Source: a virus | DNA length: 13,591 nt | UHGV virus genome: UHGV-1770993 | Reading direction: 5' to 3' (one strand) | Notes under the pieces: generated by a model | The model's input: the letters and a program-made list of their open reading frames with translations, nothing else | The model's database searches: none | Told to the model about the DNA's origin: nothing | Shown here: piece after piece, positions 1,695 through 10,128 of the stretch | Numbering within the stretch: the stretch's first letter is position 1 | Layout: every line of letters begins with the position of its first letter | Made by a program: the position numbers and the translations under genes

Positions 1695-1726
1695 CGCTCT
1701 TACACATCACCGCCCTGAAAAAGGGC
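1695..1726 (+). promoter_or_regulatory. nutR: nutR (boxA CGCTCTTA 1695-1702, boxB GCCCTGAAAAAGGGC 1712-1726)
   Basis: Matches lambda nutR boxA/boxB from memory; boxB is a perfect 5-bp stem hairpin; lies between cro and cII. Confidence 0.8.
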
Positions 1727-2266: not shown

Positions 2267-3119
2267 TCTTGCAACCGTAACACATTTAAGGCCTTCACAA
2301 CGGCCTGTGGAGCGTCGTGTGGCAGAAGTTGAAGATGGTTATACCCGTCTTGCAAATGCCCTGTATGAAGAGCTTATCGGCGCAGATTTAACGAAAAATC
2401 AGAGCAAGGTTGCCCACGCCATATGCCGTAAAACATACGGCTACGGTAAAAAGATGGATCGCATCTCTGATAGTCAGTTAGCTCAAATTACCAGGCTGCC
2501 AAGACAGAAGGTAAACAAGGCCAAGAATGAGCTTATCGCGATGAAGGTTATCCTTCGCGAAGGCCAGCAAATCGGGCCTAACAAGAACATCGAGGAATGG
2601 CAAATCGAAGGGTGTCACTACTCTGGTGATAATGTCACTGCATTGGTGACAAAAAGTGTCACCAAAACGGTGACAGCGCTGTCACCAAAACAGGGACACA
2701 CAAAAGAAACTATTACAAAAGAAAAAAGAAATAATAAAAACACTATGTCCGAAAGTGTTCGGACGGAGTGTGAAAAATCACCTGACCGTCACGAAGAAAC
2801 CGACAAGGCATTCGAGGAAATATTCTGGTGTGCAGGCATGCGGAAGGCCGGGAAGAAAAACGCAGCTTCGGCATTCAGAACACAGTTCAGGGAATGGCGT
2901 AAAACTACCAGGGGTACGGCAAGCGAGTTTGCCACGATGCTGGCAGAAGACATCGCATGCAGGAATGGTAAGCAGTTCGGATTCGACAGGTTGTTACCAT
3001 CGAGCTACCTGAACGGTCAGCGCTGGAACGACGAGAAGCCAGAAACTATTCAACCACAATCCAAACCATCATCCGCAATCACCGTATCGAAAACTGGCTA
3101 CGTGTTTTTCGACAGGTGA
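2259..3119 (+). CDS. O: Replication initiator, lambda O-like (N-terminal iteron-binding domain)
   Basis: N-terminal region (...[13 protein letters not shown]...[41 protein letters not shown]...GPNKNIEEW) resembles lambda O from memory; contains internal iterons and an AT-rich tract like ori-lambda. Confidence 0.85.
2620..2745 (+). repeat. Putative replication origin inside the O-like gene: iterons followed by an AT-rich tract
   Basis: Repeated GTGACA/TGTCAC palindromic units (TGTCACTGCATTGGTGACA, GTGTCACCAAAACGGTGACA, GCTGTCACCAAAAC) at about 2627-2691, then the A-rich stretch AAAAGAAACTATTACAAAAGAAAAAAGAAATAATAAAAAC. Confidence 0.65.
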
Positions 3120-3226
3120 ACCATGAAATCAAAAATCAAATCGCTACTGGTCGCTGGTTATAACCACGGCTGGTTAAGTATTTCGTTTGTCGATTTCTGG
3201 TTTAAAAATCTCAATCTGAGGGAATC

Positions 3227-5107
3227 ATGACGCCAAGTGAACTCAGTGACCTGCTTTGGGCGCAGGTTGACAGGGTGGCTCCGCACCTGTTGCCAAACGG
3301 CAAGAAAGAGGGGCATGAGTGGGTTGCCGGTAACGTCAACGGTGACAAGGGAAACAGCCTTAAGGTCAACCTTAGCGGCAAGAAAAAATGGGCTGATTTC
3401 GCTGAGGGAGACGGCGGTGACATGCTTGATTTGTGGATGGCATGTCGTGGAATTAACCTGCATCAGGCTATGCAGGAAGCGAAAGCCTTTCTCGGAATCA
3501 AGGATGACGATCACCATTTCGATGCCAAACGTGAGAAGAAATTCTCCAGACCTGACCGCAAGAAAATCGCCCGCTACGTTACCAGAACAGAATCCCATCT
3601 TGAGTACCTGCAATCGCGTGGCATATCGCCAGAAGTCGTAAAGCGCTACGAGGTTGTCAGCGGCAAGGTGTGGAATGGAGAACGAGAACTTGATGCACTG
3701 GTGCTTCCGTACAAACGCGATGGTGAGTTGTTGCAGGTCAAGCGAATCAGCACTGAGCGACCGGACGGGAAGAAAGTCATTATGGCAGAAGGTGATTGCG
3801 AACCTTGTCTGTTTGGATGGCAGGCTCTGGACGCTGGCGTGAGGGCGGTTGTACTTTGCGAAGGCGAAATTGATTGTATGAGCTATGCGCAATATGGCAT
3901 CTCGGCGTTATCCGTGCCGTTTGGTGGCGGGAAAGGCGCTAAACAGCAGTGGATTGAGTTTGAGTATCACAACCTCGACAGGTTTGAGGAAATATTCATC
4001 TCGATGGACGTTGATGATGTTGGTCGTGAAGCCGCAAGGGAAATCGCAAGCCGACTCGGTGAACATCGTTGCCGTCTTGTTACTCTGCCGTACAAAGACA
4101 TCAACGAATGCCTGATGAACGGTGTTACCGAGGATGAAATCTGGCAGTACATCGGCACGGCATCCTACTTCGATCCTGAAGAACTCTACAGCGCGCGAGA
4201 GTTTTACCAGGACACTATCAACGCTTTCTACGGCAAGCAGCAGTATCTGTTTAATCCACCGTGGGAATCTCTGGCAGATAAATTCCAGTTCCGTGAGGCA
4301 GAGTTGACGCTGGTCAATGGTGTGAACGGTCACGGAAAAACGGAGGTTGTCGGGCATATGGCACTTGAGGCAATGCGTCAGGGTGTGAAGACGTGCATCG
4401 CGTCACTTGAGCTGAAGCCAGGCATTCTCCTTAAGCGACTTACCCGTCAGGCGACGTGCTGCAAGATGCCGCCAGTGCTGGAAATTGACTCTGCATTTAA
4501 ATTTTATGACGAAAGACTTTGGGTGTTTGGCCTGACCGGAACGGCGAAAGCCGACAGGCTGATCGAAATATTCGACTACGCTCGCCGCCGATACGGGATC
4601 CAGTTATTCATCATCGACAGCCTGATGAAATGTGGCATAGGCGACGATGACTATAACGGGCAGAAGGCGTTTGTTGACTCGATTTGCGACTTCAAAAACA
4701 AAACAAACTCCCACGTCATTCTCGTTACTCACTCGCGAAAAGGAGACAGCGAAGAAAAACCAACCGGGAAAATGGACGTAAAAGGCTCTGGAGCGATAAC
4801 AGACCTGACAGACAACCTTTTCATCATCTGGCGTAACAAGGCTCGCGAGAGAGCGTTACAGAGAGTTCAGAGTGGTGAAAAGATGTCAGAGAAGGACGAA
4901 CAGCTACTGGCATCTCCGGCATCTGTTTTGATGCTTGAAAAACAACGTAACGGCGAAGGTTGGGAAGGTGGTGTCCCGTTGTTCCTTGACGAGCAATCGC
5001 ACCAGTTCCTGCAACTTGAATCAGGATCGCCATATAGCTACATCGCCAATATGCCGAAATCGGAATATGACGAGGCGTGGCGACAGGAAAACGTGACGGA
5101 GTATTAA
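3227..5107 (+). CDS. Replicative primase-helicase (Toprim domain fused to a DnaB/RecA-fold SF4 helicase domain)
   Basis: 626-aa ORF; Toprim-like CEGEID and DVDD motifs; Walker A GVNGHGKTE and Walker B LFIIDSLMK in the C-terminal half; occupies the position of lambda P. Confidence 0.8.
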   Translation: MTPSELSDLLWAQVDRVAPHLLPNGKKEGHEWVAGNVNGDKGNSLKVNLSGKKKWADFAEGDGGDMLDLWMACRGINLHQAMQEAKAFLGIKDDDHHFDAKREKKFSRPDRKKIARYVTRTESHLEYLQSRGISPEVVKRYEVVSGKVWNGERELDALVLPYKRDGELLQVKRISTERPDGKKVIMAEGDCEPCLFGWQALDAGVRAVVLCEGEIDCMSYAQYGISALSVPFGGGKGAKQQWIEFEYHNLDRFEEIFISMDVDDVGREAAREIASRLGEHRCRLVTLPYKDINECLMNGVTEDEIWQYIGTASYFDPEELYSAREFYQDTINAFYGKQQYLFNPPWESLADKFQFREAELTLVNGVNGHGKTEVVGHMALEAMRQGVKTCIASLELKPGILLKRLTRQATCCKMPPVLEIDSAFKFYDERLWVFGLTGTAKADRLIEIFDYARRRYGIQLFIIDSLMKCGIGDDDYNGQKAFVDSICDFKNKTNSHVILVTHSRKGDSEEKPTGKMDVKGSGAITDLTDNLFIIWRNKARERALQRVQSGEKMSEKDEQLLASPASVLMLEKQRNGEGWEGGVPLFLDEQSHQFLQLESGSPYSYIANMPKSEYDEAWRQENVTEY

Positions 5108-5191
5108 ATGACCATCTACATCAGTGAGCTTGTAACAGGCCTGCTGGTAATCGCAGGCCTTTTTATTTGGGGGAGAGTAAATCGTGGCTGA
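5108..5191 (+). CDS. Possible 27-aa hydrophobic micropeptide (MTIYISELVTGLLVIAGLFIWGRVNRG)
   Basis: ATG directly abuts the helicase stop (TAAATG); its stop overlaps the GTG start of the next gene; single hydrophobic stretch; too short to be sure. Confidence 0.25.
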   Translation: MTIYISELVTGLLVIAGLFIWGRVNRG

Positions 5192-5390
5192 GTTAATTTT
5201 CTCTGCATTGAGGATTCTCGGTGCTATGTGGATGGTGTCGACGTTCATTGTGGTTGTCGGAAGTTTTGTCCGGTTGGTAGGCGAAGGTAAAGACCTGGTG
5301 GGTGTGCTTTTCGGTAGCATTTTCCTGTGGGTGATTATCGGTGTTATGCCTGTTGTCGTTGCAAAAGTGGCGTGGCGTTTTGTGAGTTGA
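5184..5390 (+). CDS. Small membrane protein with two predicted transmembrane segments (68 aa)
   Basis: GTG start with GGGAGAG ribosome-binding site at 5171-5177; hydrophobic MWMVSTFIVVVGSFV and VLFGSIFLWVIIGVMPVVVA. Confidence 0.5.
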   Translation: MAELIFSALRILGAMWMVSTFIVVVGSFVRLVGEGKDLVGVLFGSIFLWVIIGVMPVVVAKVAWRFVS

Positions 5391-5407
5391 ACTGAGGGTA
5401 AGTACCG

Positions 5408-5764
5408 ATGGACGAATCAAGAAAGAAGTTTGAGGAATACGTTGCCAAAAAATTGAGATTACCATTCGAGATGATAACCGAGGCAAGAAATGGTGATAGG
5501 TACTTCGCATTTTCAAGCATGGATATTCGTCACTCCTTAAATGAGTGGTGGACTTTATGGCAGGCATCGCGAGCAGCTATTGAACTGGATATCGACTGGC
5601 CAGAATCGAATGACGACTTTTGGAAAGATGGTGAAGAAGGTGCTTATGCGATGGGTTATGAGGATGGGCGTGACAAAACGGTAATTGCAGTAATGAAAGC
5701 TATCAGAGCCGCTGGAATTAAAGAGAAGAATTTCGATGAAGCAAACAATATTCCTCCGAACTAA
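5408..5764 (+). CDS. Hypothetical acidic protein (118 aa) in the ren/nin position
   Basis: ORF with GAGGG upstream of the ATG; 29-nt overlap with the ninB start; no family recognised. Confidence 0.55.
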   Translation: MDESRKKFEEYVAKKLRLPFEMITEARNGDRYFAFSSMDIRHSLNEWWTLWQASRAAIELDIDWPESNDDFWKDGEEGAYAMGYEDGRDKTVIAVMKAIRAAGIKEKNFDEANNIPPN

Positions 5765-6146
5765 GCAACAACAGCAAGCCGCAATCAACGCCATCCTCGC
5801 AACACCACTCGATAAAGACAAGCCAGTCACCATCCGCATTACTGACTACAAGCGCAACCTTGACCAGAACGCAAAATTTCACGCGATGCTGGCGGATATC
5901 GCTCGTCAGGTTCAATGGTGCGATAAATGGCTAAAACCAGAACAATGGAAGGTTTTGTTGATCAGCGGTCATGCAGTGGCAACATAACAGGAAGCTGATG
6001 TTTTGCCCGGGCTTGAAGGCGAATACGTCAACATTCGCGAAAGTAGCGCGCAGATGAGTGTGAAGCGTATGGCAAGTCTGATTGAGTACACGACAGCATG
6101 GGCTATTGGTCAGGGTGTCAGATTTACCGACAGGAGGTACGAATGA
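5736..6146 (+). pseudogene. ninB: ninB (Orf-family recombination mediator) interrupted by an in-frame TAA at 5985-5987
   Basis: N-terminal 83 aa resemble lambda NinB (...LDQN.KF.A.L.D..RQV.W...WL); homology continues in the same frame after the TAA ([34 protein letters not shown]...) to the stop at 6144-6146. Confidence 0.7.
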
Positions 6147-6325
6147 GACGACAGCGACGAAGCATCACCGACATCATCTGCGAAAACTGCAAATACCTTC
6201 CAACGAAACGCTCCAGAAATAAACGTAAGCCAATCCCAAAAGAATCTGACGTAAAAACCTTCAATTACACAGCTCACCTGTGGGATATCCGGTGGCTTAG
6301 AGAACGTGCGAGGAAAACAAGGTGA
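6143..6325 (+). CDS. ninE: NinE-like small protein (60 aa)
   Basis: ATG 6143 with GGAGG ribosome-binding site at 6134-6138; [60 protein letters not shown] matches my recollection of lambda NinE. Confidence 0.65.
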
Positions 6326-6492
6326 TTGACCCAAATCGAAGTTACGAACAAGAAAGCGTCGAGCGGGCTTTAACGTGCGCTAACTGCGGTCAGAAGCTGC
6401 ATGTGCTGGAAGTTCACATGTGTGAGCACTGCTGCGCAGAACTGATGAGCGATCCGAATAGCTCAATGTACGAGGAAGAAGACGATGAGTGA
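6322..6492 (+). CDS. ninF: NinF-like small cysteine-rich protein (56 aa); not in the supplied ORF track
   Basis: GTG start overlapping the ninE stop; [56 protein letters not shown] is nearly identical to lambda NinF as I remember it. Confidence 0.65.
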
Positions 6493-6754
6493 TTTCTCTG
6501 AGCTTATTTCCTTCAAAAAAGACAGAGAAGAAATGCGGACTGAATCTGTCTATTACGTTCAACACCGGAATAAACGCTCGGTGCTTGATCAGGAGTTGGT
6601 TATTACCGGAGACCTGGCATTCAGAACATATAAGGCCAGCATGGAAATGAAGGATTTCCCTAAATGTGGTTCTGAAAGAGAAGCCGCGTTAAAGCTGGCT
6701 GAGTGGATGCAGAGAATGGCTGCTGCAATTGAGAATTACTGGAGCGAACCATAA
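6485..6754 (+). CDS. Hypothetical protein (89 aa) in the nin region
   Basis: ORF translationally coupled to its neighbours (start overlaps the ninF stop; its stop overlaps the next start); no family recognised. Confidence 0.5.
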   Translation: MSDFSELISFKKDREEMRTESVYYVQHRNKRSVLDQELVITGDLAFRTYKASMEMKDFPKCGSEREAALKLAEWMQRMAAAIENYWSEP

Positions 6755-7044
6755 TGGCTAACCTACGCAAAGAAGCACGCGGCAGAGAATGCTAGGTACG
6801 TATTTACGGCATATGCAATGGCAATCCTGAAACTACAGTTCTGGCACATTACCGGATGGCTGGAATTTGCGGAACTGGAATGAAGCCTGACGACCTGATC
6901 GGCGCATGGGCTTGTAGTGACTGCCACGCGGAGATCGACCGACGCACCCGGATTCTCGACAACAAAGACGCCAGACTTTACCACCTCGAAGGCGTGATCA
7001 GGACGCAGGCGATACTGCTGAGGGAGGGGAAGATTAAGCCATGA
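6754..7044 (+). pseudogene. ybcO: ybcO-like (DUF1364) gene with an in-frame amber codon at codon 14 (TAG 6793-6795)
   Basis: Reading through the TAG gives MANLRKEARGREC*VRIYGICNGNPETTVLAHYRMAGICGTG...CSDCHAEIDRRT..., collinear with DLP12 YbcO (MADLRKAARGRECQVRIPGVCNGNPETSVLAH..., from memory), where the stop aligns to a Gln. Confidence 0.7.
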
Positions 7045-7403: not shown

Positions 7404-7588
7404 ACGCCACAATTCAAACGATACCAGAGCTTCTTATCCAGACACGAGGCAATCAGACCGAAGTGGCAAGGATGCTTTCCTGCGCAAGAGGAACAGTGCT
7501 CAAGTACAACCGAGACAGCAAAGGCGAGCGTCACGTAATAGTTAACGGCGTCCTGATGGTCAAACAGGGCAAAAGGGGAAGGCCATGA
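7400..7588 (+). CDS. ninH: NinH-like protein (62 aa)
   Basis: ...TIPELLIQTRGNQTEVARMLSCARGTVLKYNRDSKGERHVIVNGVLMV resembles lambda NinH (...TIPDMLVEAYGNQTEVARRLKCSRGTVRKY..., from memory); its stop overlaps the Q start. Confidence 0.7.
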   Translation: MNATIQTIPELLIQTRGNQTEVARMLSCARGTVLKYNRDSKGERHVIVNGVLMVKQGKRGRP

Positions 7589-8208
7589 GACTCGAAAGCG
7601 CAGCTAAATTTCATTCGCCAAAAAGCCCGATGATGAGCGACTCACCACGGGCTACGGCTTCTGACTCTCTTTCCGGTACTGATGTGATGGCTGCTATGGG
7701 GATGGCGCAATCACAAGCCGGATTCGGAATGGCTGCATTCTGTGGTAAGCACGAACTCAGCCAGAACGACAAACAAAAGGCTATCAACTATCTGATGCAA
7801 TTTGCACACAAGGTATCGGGGAAATACCGTGGCGTTGCAAAGCTTGAAGGAAATACTAAGGCAAAGGTACTGCAAGTGCTCGCAACATTCGCTTATGCGG
7901 ATTATTGCCGTAGTGCCGCGACGCCGGGCGCAAGATGCAGAGATTGCCACGGTACAGGCCGTGCGGTTGATATAGCCAAAACAGAGCAGTGGGGGAGAGT
8001 TGTTGAGAAAGAGTGCGGAAGATGCAAAGGTGTCGGCTATTCAAGAATGCCAGCAAGCGCCGCATATCGCGCTGTAACGATGCTAATCCCAAACCTTACT
8101 CAACCCACCTGGTCACGCACTGTTAAGCCGCTGTATGACGCTCTGGTGGTGCAATGCCACAAAGAAGAGTCAATCGCAGACAACATTTTGAATGCGGTCA
8201 CACGTTAA
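7585..8208 (+). CDS. Q: Late-gene antiterminator Q, lambda type
   Basis: 207-aa translation (MRLESAAKFHSPKSPMMSDSPRATASDSLSG...CRDCHGTGRAVD...) is essentially identical to lambda Q as I remember it; followed by PR'/qut. Confidence 0.92.
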   Translation: MRLESAAKFHSPKSPMMSDSPRATASDSLSGTDVMAAMGMAQSQAGFGMAAFCGKHELSQNDKQKAINYLMQFAHKVSGKYRGVAKLEGNTKAKVLQVLATFAYADYCRSAATPGARCRDCHGTGRAVDIAKTEQWGRVVEKECGRCKGVGYSRMPASAAYRAVTMLIPNLTQPTWSRTVKPLYDALVVQCHKEESIADNILNAVTR

Positions 8209-8482: not shown

Positions 8483-8557
8483 GGGTCAGTCGTATAAAGG
8501 TCATTACGGAAGGCTGTTAACCTTCTTATCGTGGTTCGAGTCCACGCTGTCCCGCCA
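8483..8557 (+). tRNA. tRNA-like gene, anticodon GTT (Asn) by manual folding
   Basis: Cloverleaf by eye: acceptor GGGTCAG/CTGTCCC (6 of 7 pairs), anticodon stem GAAGG/CCTTC with loop CTGTTAA, T-arm CGTGG-TTCGAGT-CCACG, discriminator G and encoded CCA; the D-arm is irregular. Confidence 0.45.
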
Positions 8558-8562
8558 AATAT

Positions 8563-8638
8563 GCTGGTTTAGCTCCAATGGTAGAGCGGTCGCCTTGTAA
8601 GCGAATGGGTAGCGGTTCAAGTCCGTTAACCAGCACCA
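8563..8638 (+). tRNA. tRNA gene, anticodon TGT (Thr) by manual folding, 76 nt with encoded CCA
   Basis: Acceptor GCTGGTT/AACCAGC (7 pairs), D-arm GCTC-CAATGGTA-GAGC, anticodon loop CTTGTAA, T-arm AGCGG-TTCAAGT-CCGTT, discriminator A, CCA. Confidence 0.65.
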
Positions 8639-8880: not shown

Positions 8881-9204
8881 ATGAAGATGCCAGAAAAACA
8901 TGACCTGTTAGCCGCCATTCTCGCGGCAAAGGAACAAGGCATCGGGGCAATCCTTGCGTTTGCAATGGCGTACCTTCGCGGCAGATATAATGGCGGTGCG
9001 TTTACAAAAACAGTAATCGACGCAACGATGTGCGCCATTATCGCCTGGTTCATTCGTGACCTTCTCGACTTCGCCGGACTAAGTAGCAATCTCGCTTATA
9101 TAACGAGCGTGTTCATCGGCTACATCGGTACTGACTCGATTGGTTCGCTTATCAAACGCTTCGCTGCTAAAAAAGCCGGAGTAGAAGATGGTGGAAATCA
9201 ATAA
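8881..9204 (+). CDS. S: Holin/antiholin S (class I holin, dual-start motif MKM)
   Basis: 107-aa translation [41 protein letters not shown]... matches lambda S from memory; dual start codons Met1/Met3 are present. Confidence 0.92.
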
Positions 9205-9664
9205 TCAACGTAAGGCGTTCCTCGATATGCTGGCGTGGTCAGAAGGAACAGATAACGGACGGCAGAAAACCAGAAATCACGGTTATGACGTCATTGTAGG
9301 CGGAGAGCTATTCACTGATTACTCCGATCACCCTCGCAAACTTGTCACGCTAAACCCCAAACTCAAATCAACAGCAGCCGGACGTTACCAGCTTCTTTCC
9401 CGTTGGTGGGATGCCTATCGTAAGCAGCTTGGCCTGAAAGACTTCTCTCCCAAAAGCCAGGACGCTGTTGCGCTGCAGCAGATTAAGGAACGTGGCGCTT
9501 TGCCGATGATTGATCGCGGTGATATCCGTCAGGCTATCGACCGTTGCAGCAACATCTGGGCTTCACTGCCGGGGGCTGGTTATGGTCAGTTCGAGCATAA
9601 GGCTGACAGCCTGATTGCAAAATTCAAAGAGGCTGGCGGAACGGTCAGAGAGATTGAGGTATGA
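9188..9664 (+). CDS. R: Endolysin R (lytic transglycosylase)
   Basis: 158-aa translation [42 protein letters not shown]... is near-identical to lambda R from memory. Confidence 0.92.
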
Positions 9665-10128
9665 GCAGAGTCACCGCGATTATCTCTGCTCTGGTTATCT
9701 GCATCATCGTCTGCCTGTCATGGGCTGTTAATCATTACCGTGATAACGCCATCGCCTACAAAGAACAGCGTGATAAAAAAGTCAGTGAGCTGAAGCAGGC
9801 GGCCGCCACCATTACTGACATGCAGCGACGCCAGCGTGCTGCTGATGCACTCGATGCTAAATACACGAAGGAGTTAGCTGATGCGAAAGCTGAAAATGAT
9901 GCTCTTCGGCGCAAGCTTGATAATGGTGGCAGGGTGCTCGTCAAAGGAAAATGCCCTGTGCCATCCTCAGCCGAAACCTCCGGCGCCTCCGGCATGGGCA
10001 ATGATGCCACCGTCGAACTCTCTCCAGTTGCTGGACGAAACGTTCTCGGTGTCCGGGACGGAATTATCCGCGACCAAACAGCACTGAGAACGCTTCAGGA
10101 ATACATCAGGACGCAATGCCTTCGATGA
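9661..10128 (+). CDS. Rz: Inner-membrane spanin Rz
   Basis: N-terminal [31 protein letters not shown] is identical to lambda Rz from memory; the C-terminal half is diverged but still coiled-coil-like. Confidence 0.85.
9881..10087 (+). CDS. Rz1: Outer-membrane lipoprotein spanin Rz1, embedded in the +1 frame of Rz
   Basis: [21 protein letters not shown]... has a signal peptide with lipobox VAGC and a proline-rich [11 protein letters not shown] segment like lambda Rz1. Confidence 0.75.

Follow-up and report, generated by a model that had tools for sequence, protein, structure and literature searches.

Introduction

The closest described counterpart of the interval analysed here is the spacer between ren and ninB of phage lambda (at 40.6 kb on the lambda genome), which holds the intrinsic terminator tR2. 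The short NinA frame, which is named in lambda, P22 and HK620, has its start 30 nt ahead of the GGCC in the tR2 stem and runs from the stop of the upstream gene to the start codon of the next gene. Lambda NinA has been discussed in PMC4824070, where Li et al. found the NinA initiation site to be 'not weak' in a reporter. Mutation of the ribosome-binding site or of the AUG of NinA restored upstream reporter expression, and translation of NinA lowered the efficiency of tR2 by only about 10% in the reporter, while ribosomes halting a few bp upstream of tR2 almost abolished termination (PMC4824070). The nin genes of lambda are linked to each other by ATGA junctions (PMC8022706; Kroger & Hobom 1982), and the ninR region has been called a 'chain of interlinked genes' for its tight stop/start overlaps (Kroger & Hobom 1982, as cited in PMC4824070 and PMC8022706).

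The DNA analysed here is the whole 13,591-nucleotide stretch of UHGV virus genome UHGV-1770993 (the window). Positions 5108–5764 of its plus strand contain three open reading frames, of 27 aa (5108–5191), 68 aa (5184–5390) and 118 aa (5408–5764). The first-pass annotation had located and described these frames correctly, and had read them as small membrane genes, none of them recognised, in the position that ren occupies in lambda. We consider it likely that the interval represents the junction between tR2 and ninB in an early-right (pR) operon of the lambda type, composed of tR2, a NinA bridge and optional cargo genes.

Genomic context of the interval

The window, a lambdoid E. coli prophage, shares 99.98% identity across 11.8 kb with prophages in DLL557, PA45B, UPEC129 and others. 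Its genes run from a cI-like repressor through cro, cII, an O-type initiator and a 626-aa primase/helicase to the interval, and continue with ninB, ninE, ninF, rusA, ninH, a Q-like antiterminator, two tRNAs and a lysis cassette. A nutR site is present at 1695–1726 (plus strand), with a boxA (CGCTCTTA) and a boxB (GCCCTGAAAAAGGGC) that are both identical to the lambda motifs; the pattern match was exact, with 0 matches expected by chance. In one of the 99.98%-identical prophages (L001) the N gene is annotated just upstream, to the left of the window. As far as sequence can tell, the nutR context shows an operon that would use N antitermination.

The upstream replication gene (3227–5107, plus strand) encodes the 626-aa primase/helicase with Toprim and DnaB_C domains (Pfam matches to Toprim_2, E=3e-12, AAA_25 and DnaB_C), which PGAP names 'toprim domain-containing protein'. 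Its TAA stop (5105–5107) abuts the ATG of the 27-aa frame. At the other end of the interval, ninB (5736–6146, plus strand; Pfam NinB, E=1e-30, residues 1–83) is broken in the window by a nonsense codon, TAA at 5985–5987, where otherwise identical prophages have AAA (SNP comparison with L001). The lysis cassette (8881–10128) lies 3.5 kb downstream of the interval and consists of a holin (8881–9204), a GH24 lysozyme and an Rz-like protein. The Rfam scan of the window returned nothing beyond the two tRNAs, and a consensus scan of the plus strand between 4800 and 6200 found no promoter-like site. Two ORFs on the minus strand cross the interval (5021–5320 and 5193–5567); the substitution patterns back only the plus-strand frame of the 68-aa gene. 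Taken alone, the 27-aa ORF is within chance expectation, since positions 4000–6800 are overlapped by 50 ORFs with a length of 20 aa or more.

The tR2 terminator and NinA

A terminator scan and folding identified an intrinsic terminator at 5137–5168 (plus strand). It consists of an 8-bp stem (5137–5144 paired with 5153–5160, with 6 GC pairs), an 8-nt loop (5145–5152) and a U-run (5161–5168; TTTTATTT), and the hairpin has a folding energy of −15.7 kcal/mol. The exact sequence of tR2, that is the hairpin GGCCUGC-UGGUAAUC-GCAGGCC followed by UUUUUAUUU, is found at these positions. Hairpin and U-run are identical to those of the lambda ren-ninB spacer, and near-identity to that spacer extends over all of the segment between the ATG at 5108 and GGGGGAGAG at 5177. 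The location corresponds as well: the element lies in the pR operon, after O and the helicase and before ninB, with nutR and an N gene in the same prophage. A terminator is annotated at the matching place in HK620 ('terminator tR2'), Lahn3 ('tR2, early terminator') and mEp235 ('rho-independent terminator'). By these sequence matches, positions 5137–5168 are the lambda tR2 intrinsic terminator. From the sequence identity with lambda tR2 and the established biology of lambda we infer that it would halt unmodified RNA polymerase past the replication genes, and that polymerase modified by N at nutR would read through. The NinA/tR2 block of about 70 nt is present in 405 phage records at at least 88% identity; the renD-emrE interval of E. 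coli K-12 DLP12 contains no tR2/NinA. YlcH was considered as a relative of NinA, and the two proved to be unrelated. The first-pass annotation had not listed an intrinsic terminator at 5137–5168.

A GGAG at 5172–5175 (plus strand) is the Shine-Dalgarno sequence serving the gene after tR2; here it precedes the GTG start of the 68-aa gene by 8 nt. The alignment shows the same GGGGGAGAG in lambda, where it is used by ninB, and the annotation of MG40 places an RBS at the position of this GGAG.

The 27-aa ORF that spans tR2 (MTIYISELVTGLLVIAGLFIWGRVNRG; 5108–5191, plus strand) has a GGAG 6 nt upstream of its ATG and matches the profile phrog_5907 (E=1e-17, residues 1–26 of 27). It has the defining features of NinA, namely a length in the range of about 24–30 codons, a start 30 nt upstream of the tR2 stem and the peptide MTIYITEL(I/V)TGLLVIAGLFIWGR.... 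A single residue (T6S) distinguishes it from the NinA of HK620, which the reference genome gives as a 27-aa CDS, 'ninA, similar to P22 NinA', with the terminator tR2 inside; NinA is annotated also in Lahn3 ('ninA') and in HK630. The first of the frames that had been listed as unrecognised is thus NinA with tR2 inside, and is so annotated in related phages. The window and lambda share the hairpin, the loop, the U-run, the GGGGGAGAG that follows, the distance between ATG and stem, and an ORF that connects the upstream stop to the next start codon. They differ in the genes on both sides: the upstream gene is a Toprim-DnaB primase/helicase in the window, whereas it is ren or P in the known tR2/NinA systems, and the 68-aa gene is found downstream instead of ninB. 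Because of the different downstream gene, the C-terminus of NinA reads RVNRG in the window and RGKS in lambda.

The hydrophobicity of NinA arises because the GC stem and the U-tract are read in frame; they yield GLLVIAGLFIW in the NinA frame, and stops or polar residues in the other two. A short hydrophobic ORF right after a lambdoid replication gene should be read first as tR2/NinA and not as a new membrane peptide.

Comparison of NinA/tR2 loci

Two samples of viral contigs were compared, one of 80 loci seeded on the 68-aa protein and one of 120 loci seeded on the exact hairpin alone. In most loci the homology to the window starts exactly at the ATG of NinA, and this ATG is found exactly 30 nt upstream of the stem in 111 of the 116 usable exact-hairpin loci. 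Seven different upstream gene ends are represented in these 111 loci (ren, two helicase types, primase/helicase and others), each with GGAG, GGAGG, GAGG or GGGG 5–9 nt before the NinA ATG. Downstream, the conserved block stops at GGGGGAGAG, past which the sequence varies with the next gene. In nearly every case (106 of 108 loci) the NinA stop either overlaps the start of an ORF of 60 aa or more or directly adjoins it, with eight different genes in the downstream position. The junctions are of the types ATGA (ninB and three others), GTGA (the 933W L0091 type), TAAATG (a DUF4752 gene), GTGGCTGA (the 68-aa gene and a 108-aa gene) and ATGGTTAA (the Salmonella allele of the 68-aa gene). The overlap of the 27-aa and 68-aa frames noted in the first-pass annotation (8 nt) is real, and it is one instance of a conserved coupling design.

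Variation within NinA is small. The divergent Salmonella copies carry three synonymous changes (ACC>ACT, ATC>ATT and CTA>TTG) and one I>V replacement, and about 8 synonymous versus about 11 non-synonymous changes were counted by eye. Because every change in the hairpin is also compatible with pairing, selection on the peptide and selection on the RNA are inseparable. Five HK022-type loci keep the hairpin without a NinA start, the upstream gene stopping just before the stem, which indicates that NinA is dispensable. In two loci (L028 and L006) variants in the length of the G-run break the NinA frame.

Overall, the conserved arrangement and the published lambda reporter suggest that NinA is most likely translated and would serve as a bridge, coupling whichever gene comes after tR2 to the gene upstream. 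The core element is probably tR2, and the NinA peptide itself is probably not the point. By termination-reinitiation, NinA would hand ribosomes leaving the replication gene on to the first gene past tR2. The block of about 70 nt can then be regarded as a universal linker with its own ribosome hand-over, consisting of an SD-like motif and a stop placed on the next start, and this hand-over could explain the varied cargo at the tR2-ninB junction. A portable ribosome bridge over tR2 is an extension of the 1982 observation on the lambda genes and no surprise to a lambda specialist.

The 68-aa gene

The gene that follows tR2, here p68 (5184–5390, plus strand), starts with GTG within the end of NinA and encodes a basic protein (pI 10) of 68 aa. 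The protein has two hydrophobic segments (about residues 3–29 and 38–60), both rich in Gly, Ala and Ser, and a basic C-terminus. It matches phrog_1165 over the full length (E=6.9e-35, residues 1–68 on profile 1–68) and is called by PGAP as WP_000818846.1. No match was obtained in Pfam (E≤1), NCBIfam or PADLOC-DB (E≤1). A total of 235 clusters was found, all of them from Escherichia, Shigella or Salmonella, and the length is 68 aa in nearly all; the family is confined to lambdoid phages of the Escherichia/Salmonella group. The start keeps its position, with GTG as the codon in E. coli phages and ATG in the Salmonella allele; the invariant motifs are LV-x-x-GKD in the loop and AK-x-AWRF at the C-terminus. 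The dN/dS ratio lay in the range 0.2–0.35 (0.23–0.34) in comparisons with the HK620-type (56–60% identical) and Salmonella (41% identical) alleles. In the p68 frame alone pS (0.55) exceeded pN (0.27), and the two were about equal in the other two frames.

The members of phrog_1165 in HK022, HK75, HK630, mEp235, mEpX1 and Stx2 phage 86 have the same length as p68 of the window and the same place right after tR2; in HK620 the gene is present and unannotated. The window protein is 81–100% identical to most members, as against 41–60% to the HK620 and Salmonella alleles. We conclude that p68 is a real, selected gene, for a protein that its sequence predicts to be a two-segment membrane protein. Of the 'small membrane genes' proposed earlier, its product is the sole convincing independent membrane protein; the designation does not hold for the 27-aa frame, which is NinA/tR2.

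The 118-aa gene

The third gene, p118 (5408–5764, plus strand), starts with ATG after a gap of 17 nt from p68, with its own GAGGG, and its last 29 nt overlap ninB (start at 5736). It encodes an acidic protein (pI 4.8; D+E 24 versus K+R 17) that matches phrog_343 (E=3.8e-30). There are 187 close clusters, and among the homologues listed all, including the 99%-identical P0001, carry a precomputed PF26207 tag; since local copies of Pfam and NCBIfam gave no match, the assignment to PF26207 rests on these precomputed tags. PGAP names the identical gene 'phiTE_015 family protein', and phage phiTE was found by tblastn with the family member P0283. The family (phrog_343/PF26207/phiTE_015) includes Sf6 gene 48-like proteins, 933W L0091 and HK022_59. 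It comprises 772 representatives at 50% identity, all of them stand-alone proteins of about 85–135 aa, from lambdoid and P22-like phages, virulent Pseudomonas PAK_P1-like phages, phages of Klebsiella, Yersinia and Hafnia, and Pectobacterium phage phiTE. The homology of p118 is thus to families without known function, and not to a nin-region family with a defined one.

The N-terminal motif M-D/N-ES-R-x-QFE (MDESRxQFE) is conserved across the family, which supports the start at 5408; the 81-aa gene called by PGAP (5519–5764) is therefore truncated. The broad consensus reads SREQFEAW ... W-x-AWQASRAAIEIELP ... AIRAAGIKVK. The protein of the window resembles the family in M-x-ES-R-x-QFE-x-W, a central W-x-x-WQASR and a C-terminal AIRAAGIK-x-K, and in being a small stand-alone protein. 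It differs in an acidic, aromatic insert (DIDWPESNDDFWKDGEEGAYAMGYEDGRDK) where a segment of the type IEIELP... is common, and in an 11-residue tail that overlaps ninB. The pLDDT of the AlphaFold2 models was 70 when the close alignment was used and 80 when the broad one was. Helices make up most of the model, which has a short two-strand element past the second of them and lower confidence around residues 70–90. No recognisable fold emerged; the search for fold relatives was empty, and the comparison of the p118 profile with PDB sequences gave nothing meaningful (best E=1.2, an MBP fusion). Pairwise pN/pS values of 0.6–0.8 are uninformative in this family, which is mosaic, the middle segment being replaced rather than diverged. 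Overall, p118 is a real acidic soluble protein of a broad phage family. Searches with all three products matched 0 PADLOC-DB families at E≤1, and PHROGs without assigned function were the sole matches; literature searches on phiTE_015, PF26207, the WP accessions and the phrog numbers gave nothing relevant.

The tR2-ninB junction as a variable site

The order in lambda and H-19B is ren first, then NinA/tR2, and in H-19B the p68/p118 block follows tR2. The assignment of the interval to the ren position is contradicted by this order, as p68 and p118 are downstream of tR2. Lambda-type ren accompanies p68 in 25 of the 80 loci seeded on p68 and in 7 of the 28 p68 loci seeded on the hairpin, so that ren and p68 are not alternatives. 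The window gave no match to lambda Ren in tblastn at E≤1e-5. Lambda Ren is like p68 and p118 in being the product of an early-right operon accessory gene beside the replication genes; it is unlike them in being a soluble protein of 96 aa encoded upstream of tR2, without sequence similarity to either and co-occurring with both elsewhere.

The contents of the junction differ between loci. ninB follows p68 after 11 nt in 27 of 89 loci, and most of the others have a phrog_343 member (31–100% identity), sometimes with more genes. The p118 family is also found without p68, for example in 933W, where L0091 is coupled directly to NinA. In lambda itself the junction holds neither p68 nor p118, unlike that of the window. 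The cargo at the tR2-ninB junction varies, and p68 and p118 are optional parts of it. As in the ninR chain, genes of the window overlap closely at NinA and p68 (8 nt) and at p118 and ninB (29 nt); unlike the chain, p68 and p118 do not overlap.

Discussion

Two other explanations of NinA have to be weighed against a ribosome bridge. The 27-codon frame could be no gene at all and simply an accident of a conserved terminator and its linker, the RNA hairpin alone being functional. Hairpin and U-run are indeed the invariant core, they are retained in HK022-type loci that lack the NinA ATG, and length variants of the G-run shift the frame in two loci; moreover, an ORF of 27 aa is unremarkable by chance, and its hydrophobicity is explained by the stem and U-tract being read in frame. 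What makes an accident unlikely is the presence of an SD-like motif at the right spacing in seven different upstream contexts, the tie between the stop and the start codon that follows, kept in 106 of 108 loci and eight downstream contexts, the synonymous substitutions in the Salmonella copies, and the initiation of translation at the lambda site in a reporter (PMC4824070). NinA might also be a leader-peptide-like attenuator, in which a ribosome close behind the polymerase blocks the tR2 hairpin; in that case translation of the replication genes would set, without involvement of N, how often transcription ends at tR2 and hence how strongly p68, p118 and the nin genes are expressed. We regard such a role as rather improbable, given that translation of NinA reduces the efficiency of tR2 by only about 10%, that the first 100 nt of an ORF are argued to be too short for a ribosome to catch up with the polymerase (both PMC4824070), and that N already solves read-through in lambda and nutR is present in the window. 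The geometry would suit attenuation, as the hairpin begins 29 nt past the NinA AUG and lies wholly within the ORF, the upstream stop abuts the NinA start, and ribosomes stopped a few bp upstream of tR2 nearly abolish termination (PMC4824070).

As to the cargo, the original proposal was that three unrecognised small membrane genes in the ren slot may act in superinfection exclusion or in protection against exclusion of the Rex type, by analogy with ren. Small inner-membrane phage proteins do mediate exclusion (P22 SieA/SieB, HK97 gp15, T4 Imm), p68 is a genuine small membrane protein encoded in the early operon, and the window is without a ren homologue. The analogy is nonetheless a doubtful one and the proposal has a low probability: p68 and p118 are downstream of tR2 whereas ren is upstream, ren co-occurs with p68 (25 of 80 and 7 of 28 loci), the 27-aa ORF is NinA/tR2, the 118-aa protein is soluble and acidic, and PADLOC gave no match. 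Furthermore, genes located behind tR2, without a promoter-like site of their own, in a CI-repressed and N-dependent operon would be expressed in lytic development only and be silent in the lysogen, which is where classical exclusion acts; this predicted silence argues against classical prophage-mediated exclusion by p68 and p118. Neither exclusion, anti-exclusion nor takeover was supported by searches of the products in PADLOC, Pfam and NCBIfam or by the fold searches. It is very unlikely that p68 is a membrane-damaging toxin, a holin-like lysis-timing factor or a prophage-expressed moron that alters host physiology. The window carries a complete lysis cassette of its own, with the holin at 8881–9204, a GH24 lysozyme and an Rz-like protein, and p68 lies 3.5 kb away from it and matched no holin family in Pfam at E≤1. 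The promoter-like site and own terminator that are usual in morons are absent from p68. Its properties in favour are its small size, the two Gly/Ala/Ser-rich hydrophobic segments and the basic C-terminus; the pinholin of phage 21 also has 68 aa.

Under the tR2-to-ninB junction reading, the products of the cargo genes past tR2 would be p68, an inner-membrane protein of 68 aa containing two hydrophobic segments, and p118, an acidic protein of 118 aa in the cytoplasm. Both genes would be delayed-early ones, with products made solely in N-driven lytic development. As a low-confidence guess, p68 and p118 could be lytic-phase accessory effectors. p68 would then act on the envelope, for instance by blocking secondary DNA entry or by countering a membrane-acting host defence, and p118 might bind a host or defence protein. 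The more specific combination, in which p68 blocks secondary DNA entry or neutralises membrane-acting abortive infection while the phage grows lytically, p118 is a new anti-defence or takeover protein and NinA is a general 'ribosome bridge', seems quite unlikely. If it were true, the acidic aromatic insert of p118 would be a binding surface, and the NinA bridge would make any gene placed behind tR2 translatable, explaining the build-up of cargo at the junction.

The interval is largely ordinary and already catalogued, consisting of tR2 in NinA and two conserved phage genes. The p68 and p118 families are common in prophages of pathogenic E. coli and Salmonella, including Stx phages, and the p118 family, with more than 700 clusters, extends to virulent Pseudomonas and Pectobacterium myoviruses. 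For screens of accessory genes in phages, both genes are reasonable candidates without being exceptional. A relative of p118 in phage Gally carries the annotation 'similar to P22 EaD'.

p68 and p118 at the tR2 to ninB junction

An unannotated homologue of p68, the membrane-protein gene of the window (5184–5390), was found in the HK620 reference genome (locus L088, NC_002730) at 1198–1404; it is 68 aa long, shows 60% identity and lies between the annotated ninA/tR2 and ninB. In the old H-19B record (locus L002, AF034975; about 3080–3130), the p68 homologue ends after 14 codons (VAEFMLVALKCVGV followed by a stop), which is probably due to a sequence error or frameshift in that record. The start of the acidic-protein gene p118 was also reassessed. 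The RefSeq/PGAP model, named 'phiTE_015 family protein', comprises 81 aa only (5519–5764); conservation of the family N-terminus MDESRxQFE shows that the real ORF is the longer, 118-aa version (5408–5764).

The cryptic prophage DLP12 of E. coli K-12 (locus L091, 2036–4429) likewise carries membrane-protein cargo at the ren-to-nin-genes junction, since renD is directly followed there by emrE, which encodes an SMR membrane transporter, and then by ylcJ, ybcK and the ninB-like ybcN. The tR2/NinA sequence is absent from this DLP12 junction.

Viral contigs L184, L203, L141 and L150 have a different gene, of 108 aa, directly 3' of tR2. This gene shares the GTGGCTGA junction with p68 and diverges thereafter (GTGGCTGACTGGCAAAT...), and the mosaic break point therefore lies inside the first three codons. 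In IMGVR_UViG_2713896773_000006 (locus L053), an 18-nt tandem duplication within the tR2 hairpin repeats GGCCTGCTGGTAATCGCA; the NinA frame is preserved and extended by 6 aa, and alternative hairpins arise.

Other genes of the window

The ninB gene (5736–6146) contains a premature TAA at 5985–5987. The window copy is either a recent pseudogene or the product of a sequencing error, because otherwise identical prophages have AAA (Lys84) at this position and the NinB frame downstream of the stop remains open to 6146. Besides this codon, the only mismatch to prophage L001 (NZ_CM126350), compared over 11.8 kb, is at 6793 (T in the window, C in L001).

The replication module consists of a lambda O-type initiator and, 107 nt further on (gap 3120–3226), a 626-aa Toprim+DnaB_C primase/helicase (3227–5107), which replaces the P-type loader of lambda. 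Two tRNA genes, tRNA-Asn(GTT) at 8483–8557 and tRNA-Thr(TGT) at 8563–8638, are located between the Q-like antiterminator (7585–8208) and the holin (8881–9204).
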